From: an uncultured Gammaproteobacteria bacterium
GTDB lineage: Bacteria; Pseudomonadota; Gammaproteobacteria; GCA-002705445; GCA-002716945
Assembly: GCA_902521725.1 (NCBI GenBank)
Contig: CABYTF010000004.1
Span: 19,049 to 83,048 of the forward strand
Reading direction: 5' to 3'
DNA: 64,000 nt
In this document: in pieces, positions 54,001 to 60,000 of the stretch
How the letters are laid out: every line of letters begins with the position of its first letter
Position numbering within the stretch: position 1 is the first letter of the stretch
Made by a program: the position numbers

Positions 54001-57000
54001 GTAGAAAATTGAGGACCTTCGATACAAATATATGAACCTCCAAAGTTATATTTAATACCAAGTTTTTCCAGACAAACTCTTGAAATTTCCATAAGTCTCT
54101 CATCTGTAGGTTTTGCCATAGATACATGAACAACAATATCATCCTCAAAAAAAGTTGATACTCTGTTTTTTGTGAAATCAACATATTGATTAATGACCAC
54201 GAAAACTCCAGGTAATAGATCCTCATTAAGTGATCCAACAGATGAAAGTGATAATACATCTGTTACACCCAATTTTTTTAACGCATCTATATTTGCTCTA
54301 TAATTAATTTTTGATGGTGGTATTGAATGACCTTCACCATGTCTTGGTAAAAAGAAAAAACTCTGTTCTTTGTATTTACATTCTGCAATTGATGCAGATG
54401 GGGCTCCCCAAGGAGTATCTAACGAATGTGATTCTAATATATCTATGTCGGGTATTTCATAAAGACCACTGCCTCCGATAATGCCAAGTCTTTTGCTCAT
54501 AGTTGATTCTTAATATAATCGCTAAGCTCAATATTCGGTTTCCATCCGAGATCTAATACTTTTTTTGAGATGATTTCTGAACTCATTCTATTAGCGACAT
54601 TTTCATTAATAAGTTCAATTTGATCAGATATCATTTCTGCAACCTCTCTAATAGTATATTGTCTAGGGTTCGCTATACCGTATTGGTCTCCATGCCCTTT
54701 ATCTGCTATCAACAGCAGTGCGCTGATAGTATCCTCTATATGAGTGAAGTTGCGAGTCTGTGTTCCGGGTTTAGTTACTTTAAGTTTCTTATTTTGTTTT
54801 TTTCTATATAGAAATTTTGCAATTACTGTTGCAAATTCTCCTTGAGAATTTTCTCTTCCCCCATACACATTATAGAAATATGTGATTGCATATGGCATTT
54901 GGTTAAGTTCACAATAAAACTTTACAAGTTCAGAATTCTGCCATTTAGAGAAGGAATAAGGACTTTTAAGTTTGTTTTGACCATCATCTGCAAATTTGGT
55001 GCTACTACCTGCGTATATTAATTTTGCATTAGACTTTTTGGCAAATTTTAATACATTTAATGTTGGTGAAATATTATTTTTTAGAACAAAATCAATTTTT
55101 GTTAGGGATTGTTCTACTCTGGAGTACTCACCAAGATGAAATACAATATCAAACTTCTTATCCAATGATAATATATTTTCAGCATCTAAATTGATGTATT
55201 CAACGCCGTCAATATGATTATCCGTCTTACCTGATATGTAGTTATCAATAGAAGTTACCTTATGTTTACCTGAATATGCCTCGCACAAATGCGATCCAAT
55301 AAATCCAGCTCCTCCAATAACCAATATTTTCATGATGTGGCGATATATTTAGTATTGTACAACATCTTCATCTATATCTCTCCATAAATACCATGTAGCG
55401 ACTGTGCAATATGGTTCCCATAGTTTTCTGGTTTTAGAAATTTTTTTTATGAATACGTCACGATTGATTTTATAATTTTTACAATAACTATTGATTAAGC
55501 CAATGTCGCCTAATGGCAGGATATTTTCTCGATTGAGGTGAAATATCAAAAACATCTCGGCAGACCATAAACCAATGCCATAAAGTTTTACAAGTTCTTT
55601 TATCGCATCTGTATCATCCATTAACTCTAACTTGCTAAAAAAGCTAGGTTTACTATTTATAATTTCAGCAACCCCTTTTATATATGCCACTTTCCTGAAA
55701 GAGAGTCCGCAATTTCGTAGATGCTGATCAGGGGTAGCTAGAATTTTTTTCGGATTGATCTTTCCCAATAACTTTTTAATCTTACACTCAATTGAATTAG
55801 CAACTTCGATAGATATTTGCTGACCGATTATTATTTTTGTTAGTGTTATAAAAATAGAATTCGAAGAAGTTAGATATGTGCTTGATCTGTGTTTATTAAT
55901 TATCCTTGAAAGTACAGGATCATTCGACTGAAGATGCTTAATAGCTCTTAGCCAATAATGAGGTTTTTTATTTTTCTTTTTAATCATTATAGGCGTGCTA
56001 ATATAACACGCCTATTAGATCTTGTATTACTGATTTTTATATGTACTTATTCCGAACGGTATATAAAGTGGGCACCATCCAGTTGTACCAGTTAATATTG
56101 GAATAATACCAATAAGAGACCACATTCCTAAGCCAAGTCCTGGTCCCATATATAGGATTGCTATACCAGCAATCACTCTGAGCATTCTTTCCATACTGCC
56201 AATGTTTGTACACATAGTTTTAGGTGTAGTTGCCATGTTTATTCACTCCTGAAGTAGATTAATGTTTACATAGTATTAAAATAAATATCTAATCGCAATA
56301 TTATTTTTTCTTACTTTTATAGTCCTCAATAGCGGCACTGATTGCATCTTCAGCAAGAACAGAACAATGAATTTTTACAGGAGGAAGAGCTAGCTCTTCA
56401 GCAATGTCTGTATTTTTTATCATTGATGCTTCAGTAAGCGTTTTCCCTTTCACCCATTCGGTCAAAAGAGAACTTGACGCAATTGCAGATCCACAACCAT
56501 ATGTTTTGAATTTTGCATCTTCAATAACACCGTCATCGTTGACTTTGATTTGCAGTTTCATTACATCACCACACGCAGGTGCACCTACCATTCCTGTCCC
56601 AACTTGATCACCATCATCGAAAGTACCAACATTCCTTGGATTTTCGTAGTGATCGAGAACTTTATCACTGTATGCCATGTTTTCTCCCTGTAATTAGGTT
56701 GTTACCTAAATTTCTAGTTTTGTTGATAGTAGTTTGTTAGCTCTTCTAAATCAATATCACTAGATTTCGACTTAGTCTCGTCAATCAAACTGCCTAATGT
56801 AACTGTATCTAGATAGTTTGTAAGTTTTTTACTAAACTGATCCCATACAACATCATCGGTCTTATCATGGTCAATATCACTGACGCCTTCAGGGTTTATG
56901 GCCTTGATAATACTTGCTATGGTTATATTATCGGGGCTATCTTTCAGCCTGTATCCTCCACCAGGACCTCTAACACCACTGACAAGATCATGTTTTCTTA

Positions 57001-60000
57001 GTAATGAAAACAATTGCTCTAAATATGACAAGGAAATTCCTTGATATTTGGAGATCTCAAGCAGTGTTTTTGGTGTGCTTGACTCATTTGTCGCAATATT
57101 TACCAACGCTTTTATCGCGTATCTTCCTTTTGCTGATAGTTTCATTTTACATCCTCCTAAAATGATTCCTTAATTCCTGACTATTATTGTAAGGTTTAAT
57201 TTCTATTTTTCAAGTTCTCTTAGAATGATTCTAAGAATTAGATGATATAGAGAGTATATTCAAAGTGAATTGATATTTAATTTAATGTTTTAAACTATTG
57301 ATTATCATATGATTTTATCCAATAGAATAGATCGAGATTGAGTCTAATCTTTTCCTGAATGCAATTTTCAAAGGCGCGATTTTCTTTAAGTGATTTAACC
57401 TCCAATAATTTTGCGTCACTGTACATATAAAATATCAAATGCGGTTTTATTGAGAAAGTGTTCATTGATTCATTATTTTGATATTTGAATCTATGTAATA
57501 ACTTAAAAATACGAGTGTGTTTATCATGATGAATATCTCTTATGGTAATAGAGCTATGTTCAATCGAACTGATGCTATTGGTCTTTATTCGCTTAAGTAA
57601 AGATTTGAAATTGTGATAATTTGACTCATAAATTGACATGAGGTGAGTAAAATTTAACAATTTCAGTTTGTTTTTCTCTTTGTGAGAGATAGCTTTATAC
57701 ATCTTGGTTTATATAAATAAATATTTTGTTACAATACACAACAATATATTATATATGACAAAAAAAGAACAGATTGAAATGTCCGGCAAAGTTATAGAAA
57801 CCTTGCCAAATACAATGTTTAGGGTTGAGCTTGAAAATGGGCATGTAGTTACCGCACATATATCTGGAAAAATAAGAAAGCACTACATCAGAATATTGAG
57901 AGGTGATTCAGTAATGGTTGCTCTCACACCATATGATCTCACAAAAGGTAGAATAATTTTTCGAGACAAATAAAACCGTTAAAGGTTATTAATCACGGCA
58001 TCTCCAAAGCCACTTGTTGAAACGAGTGTAGCTCCCGGCACAAGTTTAGTTATCTCCTCTTTAACATCAACAGGGCTACTTTTATCTTTGCTCTTCACTC
58101 TGATAAGTCTTTTACCTGCCCTTGCACGAGCTAGATCGTATGTTAACTGCTTGTTTCTAATTGCTCCTTTGACACCTTTGAGTACAAGATCTGCTGCTTC
58201 TGTCCAACCCAAGTATCTCAACATCATCTCACCTGACAAAATGATAGAACCAGGGTTTACCCTGTTTTTTCCGGCAAATGGCTCAGCAGAACCATGAGTA
58301 GCTTCAAATACAGCGACACCGTCTCCAATGTTTCCACCTGGCGCCATACCTATTCCACCTACCTGTGCTGCCAAAGCATCTGATATGTAGTCTCCATTCA
58401 GATTAAGTGTTGCTATTACATCATGTTGCTCGGGGGCTAAAATGATCTGTTGAAGGAAGTTATCGGCAATGCAATCTTTAATGATGAGTTCAGTGTTAAA
58501 CTTATTATTGTCAATTAGATATGTTCCATCATTAAGTATTTTTCCATTGTACTCACTAGTAACTACATTGTAAGCCCAGTCACGGAAAGCACCTTCTGTA
58601 TATTTCATTATATTGCCCTTGTGAACAATTGTTATGCTCGACTTATTGAGTTCCAATGAGTAGTCGATAGCCATTCTGACTAGTCTCTTTGTGCCCTCTT
58701 CTGAGACTGGCTTTATCCCAATTCCACAGTTATTCTCAAATCTAAAAGGTGAGGTCCCGAGTTCTTTGCTTATGAAGTCAATTATCTTTTTTGCACCCTC
58801 GGAGTTTGGTTCCCATTCTATGCCAGAATACAAATCTTCTGTATTTTCCCTAAACACAACCATATCCGTATTTCCTGATTCAGCCATAGGAGTGCTTGTT
58901 CCAGGAAAATATTTTATAGGTCTTACACACGCAAATAAATCTAGCTTTTGACGTATCATGACATTCAATGATTTATGACCTGATCCAATAGGTGTTGTAA
59001 GTGGTCCTTTGATAGAAATTCTGTATTCTTTCATAGCATCCAGAGTTTCGTCTGGCAGAATAGAACCATACAAATCATTAGAATTAGAACCTGCATAAAG
59101 TTCTAACCACTTGATTTCTCTATCATTTCCATATGCCTTATTTACTGCATAATCTAAGACTCGCTTCATTACAGGAGTAACATCAATACCGATGCCATCA
59201 CCTATAATATATGGAATAATTGGATTATCTGGCACAATGAGTTTCGTGCCATCATGACCTATTTTGACTCCATCAGCTGGGATGTTAAGCTTCAATCGAT
59301 AGTCTCCTTACTACTTATTTGTCAAATTGCTCTTCTTCAGTGCTTCCTGTAAGAGCCGTTACAGAAGATGAACCACCTGTGATAACTTGAGTAACAGAAT
59401 CAAAATACCCTGTTCCAACTTCTCGTTGATGCTTAGTAGCTGTGTAGCCGTCTTTCTCAGCAGCGAATTCAGCTTCTTGAAGTTTGACGTACGCAGTCAT
59501 TTGCTCAGCATTATAACCTTTTGATAGTTCGAACATGCTGTAGTTCAATGCATGGAATCCAGCTAATGTGATGAACTGAAACTTATACCCCATGGAACCA
59601 AGCTCCTTTTGGAATTTTGCAATCTGTGCATCGTCAAGATTTTTTTTCCAGTTGAATGATGGTGAGCAATTATATGCCAAGAGTTGTTCAGGATGCTCTT
59701 TTTTAAGGGCTTCTGCAAATTTTTTGGCGAAATTTAAATCCGGAACTCCTGTCTCACACCAGACCAAATCGGCATATGGCGCGTATGCTAAACCTCTGGA
59801 AATAGCCTGATCAATTCCGTTTTCAACACGATAGAAACCTTCCGATGTTCTCTCTCCTGTAGTGAATTCCCTATCTCTCTCATCGATATCGCTAGTTAAT
59901 AAATTCGCTGCCTCTGCATCAGTTCTTGCGAGCAGGACGGTTGGCGTGTTGTAAATATCTGCAGCTAATCTTGCCGCTGCAAGCTTTTGCACAGCCTCTT

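Follow-up and report, generated by a model that had tools for sequence, protein, structure and literature searches.

IscR and CymR are the two described regulators of the Rrf2 family that come closest to the protein considered here: IscR is the textbook regulator whose DNA specificity switches with its iron-sulfur (Fe-S) cluster, and CymR is cluster-free and needs CysK to bind DNA. In Escherichia coli, type-1 boxes are recognised by [2Fe-2S]-IscR alone and type-2 boxes by apo-IscR; in apo-IscR, Glu43 requires C7C8 on both half-sites, and the exchange E43A lets the apo-protein bind type-1 sites (PMC5411485, PMC4055776, PMC8593673). Proteobacterial IscRs outside the Rhodobacteraceae have been described as keeping three cysteines (PMC4618611), and the recruitment of Rrf2 proteins to Fe-S loci has been ascribed to conserved cysteines in a survey of the family (PMC9973013). 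The IscRs of the Rhodobacteraceae (Rhodobacter sphaeroides; Dinoroseobacter shibae, PDB 7ZPN) have lost the set of three, but still reside at an Fe-S biogenesis locus, keep one cysteine and bind an Fe-S cluster (PMC4618611). Here, a 64-kb stretch of DNA from an uncultured gammaproteobacterium (assembly GCA_902521725.1, contig CABYTF010000004.1, positions 19,049 to 83,048; the whole stretch is referred to as the window) is analysed, in which the gene of an Rrf2 regulator is directly followed by iscU. The regulator is IscR-like in its fold and in its DNA-reading residues and lacks the cluster ligands that define IscR: its 143 residues include no cysteine. Judged by comparison across its relatives, the locus carries a real, lineage-wide and apparently clusterless IscR variant at a split iscR-iscU unit, with a type-1-like operator retained.

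Membership of the regulator in the Rrf2 family is evident from the match to Pfam PF02082 (93.9 bits). Among the NCBIfam models, IscR TIGR02010 fits best, with 123 bits, but the curated equivalog cut-off of 207.55 is not reached; the scores also stay below the cut-offs of a second IscR model, NF008110 (106.9 bits; cut-off 275), and of CymR, NF047409, the second-best family (86.5 bits; cut-off 195). The closest sequences in the PDB are those of E. coli IscR (4HF0 and 4HF1; E ~5e-27), with an alignment that spans residues 1-123. An AlphaFold model of the regulator, with a mean predicted local distance difference test (pLDDT) score of 76.5 and values below 50 in the loop 89-92, has the same fold: Foldseek places E. 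coli IscR on top (4HF2, 4HF1 and 4HF0; TM-score 0.80-0.87, normalised to the target), then Thermincola potens IscR, then CymR (PDB 2Y75; E ~1e-10). The recognition-helix segment, GISLSYLEQLFS, with Ser40, Glu43 and Gln44, and the wing VRGPGGGY, with Arg59, are identical to those of E. coli IscR, and the GxxGGxxL motif is kept; the roles of these elements in base contact and in the wing have been described (PMC5411485, PMC9973013).

Unlike in E. coli IscR, the cluster-loop segment is 9 residues shorter, and Cys92, Cys98, Cys104 and His107 are deleted or replaced, His107 being aligned with Asp98; the two histidines of the regulator, H52 and H93, are not conserved. According to this alignment, the (Cys)3(His) [2Fe-2S] cluster cannot be held by the regulator, which has probably derived from IscR. 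The mere absence of cysteine from a protein of 143 residues is not improbable by chance; the loss is significant because the three ligand positions and His107 are replaced, 9 residues are deleted and this state is fixed across ~80 independent, related loci. Being cluster-free, the regulator resembles CymR, but it has a recognition helix of the IscR type, and its neighbour is iscU rather than genes of cysteine metabolism. It shares the loss of the Cys3 set and the Fe-S biogenesis context with the Rhodobacteraceae IscRs; these belong to the alpha class, use the Iron-Rhodo box as operator and are encoded in an isc-suf operon with desulfurases, and the regulator differs from them in all of these respects.

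The lineage in which this variant occurs is frequent in marine metagenomes. A protein search returned at least 7,999 matches, canonical IscRs included; about 100 of the 120 matches listed are at least 76% identical to the regulator and stem mostly from marine samples (Tara, JGI and ENA). The exact protein is encoded on at least 23 contigs, including one of a single-amplified genome (GCA_902591735.1), and relatives at 85%, 68% and 57% identity share the gene order aceA-icd-(infA)-DUF1249-Rrf2-iscU-DUF2892-glycosylase. Scanning metagenomes with clade-specific C-terminal motifs as seeds yielded 80 loci of the clade, with 30-38% G+C and regulator identities down to ~55%. Complete regulators of this clade have either no cysteine or a single one at a helix position (KLCNYL; threonine in the near clade), never at a ligand position, and iscU begins 15-44 nt after the regulator gene wherever the contig extends far enough. 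The same synteny and the loss of the ligand cysteines recur across ~80 loci. This state of the iscR-iscU pair is fixed and under selection, and it does not stem from assembly or annotation. The 44 clade regulator sequences compared hardly vary over residues 1-84, with S40, E43, Q44 and R59-G64 among the invariant positions; residues 85-96 contain no conserved residue, the loop being hypervariable, and near the former cluster site only D97 (invariant) and D/E98 are conserved.

The operator retains the IscR character as well. The regulator gene is preceded by a sigma-70-type promoter, TTGAAA-16-TACAAT (10 of 12 matches in a promoter scan), and a type-1-like box extends over its -10 hexamer and the predicted start site (Table 1), which is a position typical of a repressor. 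The type-1 consensus was verified empirically upstream of canonical Cys3His iscR genes in a comparison of 80 named genomes, ~75 of which have a Cys3 IscR: the sites match ATASYYGACTRWWWYAGTCRRSTAT at 20-25 of 25 positions, often as two tandem sites. With a position weight matrix (PWM) built from 69 of these sites, the 25-bp box scores 19.3 bits and ranks first among the ~64,000 positions of the window, the runner-up reaching 8.9 bits; in shuffled controls, the 99th percentile is 4.4 and the maximum 16 bits. The box agrees with the consensus at 21 of 25 positions; as in E. coli, it lies on the regulator's own promoter at the head of the isc unit, but it is single, in contrast to the two tandem boxes of many canonical iscR genes. 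In both of its half-sites, positions 4-6 are CCT; canonical sites carry C or T at position 5 and predominantly T at position 6.

Conservation singles out the box within the promoter. In 41 unique near-clade promoters, whose proteins differ by up to 19%, column identity is 0.94 in the box and at least 0.9 in the -35 hexamer, versus ~0.5 in the spacer and 0.52 further upstream; the distance from the box to the ATG is fixed in the near clade, and the box of the clade reads AAACCTTACAATWWTASTCAGGAAT. Deeper members of the clade have recognisable versions (ATACCTTACTATATTTATAAGGTAT, TTACCTTAGTATTATTGTAAGGTAT and ATACCATACCATATTGGTAAGGTAT) of 12-16 bits, and the 664 kb of clade DNA contain the motif essentially at the regulator promoter only. 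A type-2 motif (CC-x-Y-A-N7-T-R-x-GG) was not seen at the regulator promoter. The operator was also considered as a type-2 (apo) site, since its half-sites CCWYA/TRWGG resemble those of type 2, but the spacer has 9-10 nt instead of 7, and the type-1 register fits better. A perfect palindrome 5 nt upstream of the -35 hexamer, to which the preliminary description had drawn attention, does exist, but it is not the operator of the lineage: it is subset-specific. Of 58 unique clade promoters, 8 have it and 3 others a variant of it, and these belong to the closest relatives of the window. Its 7-1-7 core, TTAGAAT-n-ATTCTAA, presumably recalls the boxes of the Fur family.

The second gene of the unit encodes a canonical IscU. 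The protein scores 225.4 bits with TIGR01999 (cut-off 192.4); it can be aligned over its whole length with E. coli IscU (PDB 2L4X), interrupted by a single gap of one residue, and retains Cys36, Cys62, His104, Cys105 and LPPVK, the docking motif for HscA. Because IscU keeps all cluster ligands together with this motif, its partners IscS and HscBA are presumed to be encoded elsewhere in the genome. Among the 65 open reading frames (ORFs) of at least 100 aa listed for the window, nearly all of which were scanned against Pfam or NCBIfam, no iscS, sufS, iscA, hscB, hscA, fdx or sufBCD was found. A class V aminotransferase or desulfurase was found neither in the window nor in the clade loci, although a minimal two-gene Fe-S system (MIS), made up of a desulfurase and a U-type scaffold, would require a desulfurase gene next to that of the scaffold, and no ORF with the pyridoxal-phosphate motif of desulfurases occurs within 10 kb of the regulator in ~80 clade loci. 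A 408-aa ORF near the locus in L001, a candidate IscS by its size, was discarded, since by eye its sequence seems to be of the alcohol-dehydrogenase/enoyl-reductase type.

Compared with the gammaproteobacterial iscRSUA-hscBA-fdx operon, the regulator is still the first gene, iscU is codirectional and IscU is canonical, but only the regulator gene and iscU remain together, with iscU instead of iscS in second place. The order iscR-iscS-iscU-iscA-hscB-hscA-fdx is found in most of the ~75 named genomes that encode a Cys3 IscR (their canonical IscRs are at most 47% identical to the regulator among the matches listed); in several other lineages, no iscS was detected downstream of iscR. In the gammaproteobacterial metagenome-assembled genome (MAG) N1D-Bin_17 (locus L041, 8032-11798), a canonical Cys3His IscR is directly followed by IscU and then acnB, without iscS; this IscU is 82% identical to that of the window, and two tandem type-1 boxes lie upstream of the iscR gene. 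The split of iscR-iscU from the remaining genes is thus independent of the loss of cysteine, because it occurs in this MAG next to a normal Cys3His IscR.

Much of the preliminary description of the locus is borne out by these comparisons. It had taken the regulator for an IscR homologue without cysteine, which the count of zero, the best model TIGR02010 and the PDB alignment support, and had stated that a Cys3His [2Fe-2S] site is impossible, for which it had proposed the alignment with IscR that gives the same answer. Its gene order is likewise correct: iscU begins directly after the regulator gene, with a gap of 35 nt according to the ORF coordinates, Pfam identifies the DUF2892 membrane protein and the DNA glycosylase that follow, and the absence of iscS, iscA, hscBA and fdx from the locus extends to the entire window. 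The near residue-for-residue match of IscU to its E. coli counterpart is evident from the 2L4X alignment. The term "strongly reduced isc locus" is appropriate for the locus, but is not supported for the ISC system as a whole: the canonical IscU implies partners elsewhere, and the split is shared with L041.

The promoter architecture suggests the following mode of control: The regulator gene and iscU would form a two-gene unit, probably co-transcribed from the TTGAAA-16-TACAAT promoter. A dimer of the regulator, devoid of a cluster, would most likely bind the type-1-like box over the -10 hexamer and start site and thereby repress the transcription of both genes of the unit. Simple negative autoregulation, and not the Fe-S occupancy of the regulator, would then determine the supply of IscU; such control would be homeostatic without direct Fe-S feedback. 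On balance, it is somewhat more probable than its negation that the regulator acts as such a cluster-independent autorepressor of the unit via the type-1-like box; co-transcription, binding of the box, independence from a cluster and repression are what we infer from the arrangement of the sequence elements. The preliminary description had expected an apo-like mode of action, which is not what the operator suggests, because in E. coli only the cluster-loaded form of IscR binds type-1 boxes, and the promoter box is type-1-like.

Several observations weigh against cluster-independent autorepression. Glu43 is invariant in the clade, and type-1 binding without a cluster would need a structural change. 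Since the left half of the box also serves as the -10 hexamer, the conservation of the box partly reflects promoter constraint. In one deep subclade (L162-L182), the palindrome has diverged (CCCATAAC...AAGGGG) and gives no match to the type-1 PWM. Finally, the clade is not nested within the canonical IscRs in a rough neighbour-joining (NJ) tree. A more specific version is that the regulator is a natural holo-mimic, in which the short acidic loop with D97 and D/E98 fixes the recognition helix as the cluster would and permits type-1 binding despite Glu43, or else that it reads the Fe-S status via IscU; this seems possible, but doubtful.

Other readings concern how the regulator may sense, and where it came from. 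It could sense the Fe-S or sulfur status indirectly, via a protein partner or a small ligand, for instance with apo- or holo-IscU from the same mRNA as co-repressor. CymR, with its dependence on CysK, is a precedent for indirect sensing and at the same time the next-best family and structural match; moreover, the pairing of the regulator gene with iscU is tight and fixed across the clade, the acidic pair D97/D(E)98 is conserved, as is, within the near clade, an acidic tail at the C-terminus. The tail is not conserved clade-wide, however, and the interaction is purely hypothetical, which leaves indirect sensing rather unlikely. A cluster or a metal ion might instead be bound by ligands other than cysteine, and Asp, Glu or His are known to ligate the cluster in RsrR. 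The same types of ligand are found in NsrR (PMC5411485), and the single-cysteine IscR of R. sphaeroides still ligates Fe-S (PMC4618611), a case that the regulator would extend beyond the Rhodobacteraceae. With D97 invariant and position 98, aligned with His107, always acidic, candidate ligands are at hand; yet the near clade has no cysteine at all, the far-clade cysteine in KLCNYL is a threonine there, no histidine is conserved, and the loop is both hypervariable and 9 residues shorter. To our knowledge, there is no established Fe-S protein without any cysteine ligand, and ligation of this kind is very improbable here.

As to its origin, the regulator may belong to a separate, widespread family of cysteine-free IscR-like orphans, a member of which was recruited to the position before iscU. 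In a full-library HMMER search, no more than 3 representative clusters reached E ≤1e-30; the representatives that follow (40-50% identity), which are the closest outside the clade, are mostly cysteine-free, and those that can be placed are orphans in unrelated contexts, near genes for glutathione peroxidase, a spermidine-synthase-like protein and DUF179 and near sdh/mdh genes. The NJ tree groups the clade with these orphans, and the pairing of DUF1249 with an Rrf2 gene is also found in a Thiotrichales MAG. But the tree has a star-like shape and is susceptible to long-branch attraction, and the N-terminal domain of the clade is about equally similar to canonical IscRs (median identity 0.54) and to cysteine-free proteins (0.52). 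Furthermore, the promoter keeps a type-1 IscR box, and the canonical-IscR MAG L041 has the same iscR-iscU arrangement with a closely similar IscU; the box and L041 favour a loss of cysteine in place, and recruitment of a cysteine-free paralogue appears distinctly unlikely. That the regulator is a decaying relic without a regulatory role would agree with the loss of its sensory site and with the small spacers, the ~33% G+C and the 1.07-Mb contig JAYQMW010000001 of a relative, GCA_038143935.1, which fit a small streamlined genome. It is hardly credible, though, given an ORF that is intact in all ~70 loci where it is complete, ~60 positions, including the whole recognition helix and the wing, that are invariant down to ~55% overall identity, and a conserved operator.

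Irrespective of the clade, the searches point to a large and apparently undescribed set of cysteine-free IscR-like Rrf2 proteins in MAGs and metagenomes of Pseudomonadota, in varied contexts.

With no cysteine in the regulator and a type-1 box kept, a lineage that is frequent in marine samples departs both from the rule of three cysteines outside the Rhodobacteraceae (PMC4618611) and from the explanation of Rrf2 recruitment to Fe-S loci by conserved cysteines (PMC9973013). In the literature covered, which was incomplete, neither a cysteine-free IscR at an isc locus nor work on the Fe-S genes of this lineage was found. The variant provides a natural test of the structural role of the cluster: is type-1 binding feasible without the cofactor, and which residues substitute for it? 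It also bears on how a costly, iron-demanding pathway is controlled in a marine bacterium with a small genome. If the regulator were a holo-mimic or acted through IscU, the regulation of Fe-S biogenesis in an abundant ocean lineage would rest on an IscR that does without its cluster.

Table 1. Positions of predicted genes, signals and RNAs in the 64-kb window, counted from its first nucleotide.
Feature	Position	Strand	Basis and remarks
Regulator gene (Rrf2 family)	56714-57145	-	ORF; Pfam and NCBIfam scans
iscU, 125 aa	56301-56678	-	ORF; NCBIfam scan
DUF2892/YgaP-like transmembrane protein, 69 aa	56027-56236	-	PF11127, 68 bits; downstream of iscU
HhH-GPD glycosylase	55349-55987	-	Pfam scan; downstream of the DUF2892 gene
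DUF1249-like protein	57295-57702	-	Weak NF008267 match; invariant upstream neighbour of the regulator in the clade
Sigma-70-type promoter of the regulator gene	57213-57186	-	Promoter scan
-35 hexamer TTGAAA	57208-57213	-	Promoter scan; ≥90% conserved in 41 promoters
-10 hexamer TACAAT, within left half of box	57186-57191	-	Promoter scan, conservation
IscR type-1-like box AAACCTTACAATAATAGTCAGGAAT, over -10 hexamer and predicted start site	57173-57197	-	PWM
Perfect 9-1-9 palindrome TCTTAGAAT-g-ATTCTAAGA	57218-57236	-	Single perfect copy in the window
Shine-Dalgarno sequence AGGAGG of the regulator gene	57153-57158	-	Sequence reading; conserved
Hairpin TTAGGT-aaca-ACCTAA between the cistrons, just 3' of the regulator stop codon	56694-56709	-	
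tmRNA	41648-41994	+	193.5 bits
Three tRNA genes	20749-20832, 22204-22354	-	RNA-family scan

The hairpin between the two cistrons (Table 1) also folds in species-level relatives, where the stem changes compensate for each other, as in TTTTTAGGG-tata-CCCTAAAAA and TTTAACAAGC-gtgaa-GCTTGTTAAA; the hairpin has no U tract and is missing from deeper members of the clade. The relative stability or translation of the regulator and iscU cistrons may depend on it. An Rfam scan assigned no RNA family to the regulator-iscU locus. The DUF2892 gene is invariably located 3' of iscU wherever the clade contigs reach that far; its product bears a GWCPLY motif and may be connected with the handling of sulfur or Fe-S. 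On the other side of the unit, the succession of DUF1249 and a cysteine-free Rrf2 gene recurs in the Thiotrichales MAG mentioned above (L085, 7265-8420), where no iscU lies downstream. A gene for a ferritin-like protein of the Dps/bacterioferritin type is found ~4 kb downstream of iscU (51965-52405, minus strand) and is syntenic in the relative with the 1.07-Mb contig (L011).

In the protein collection, clusters at 90% identity merge neighbouring genes, such as IscU with the DUF2892 protein and DnaJ with DapB, which looks like a database artefact. The genes of the window are otherwise housekeeping genes (hrcA-grpE-dnaK-dnaJ, fab, rib, purL, pntAB, icd, aceA, mnmA, hflD and acnB). Amid these, at 45970-48395 on the plus strand, a gene for a small SxtJ-like protein (PF19588) adjoins that of a two-domain carbamoyltransferase, a pairing familiar from saxitoxin clusters.

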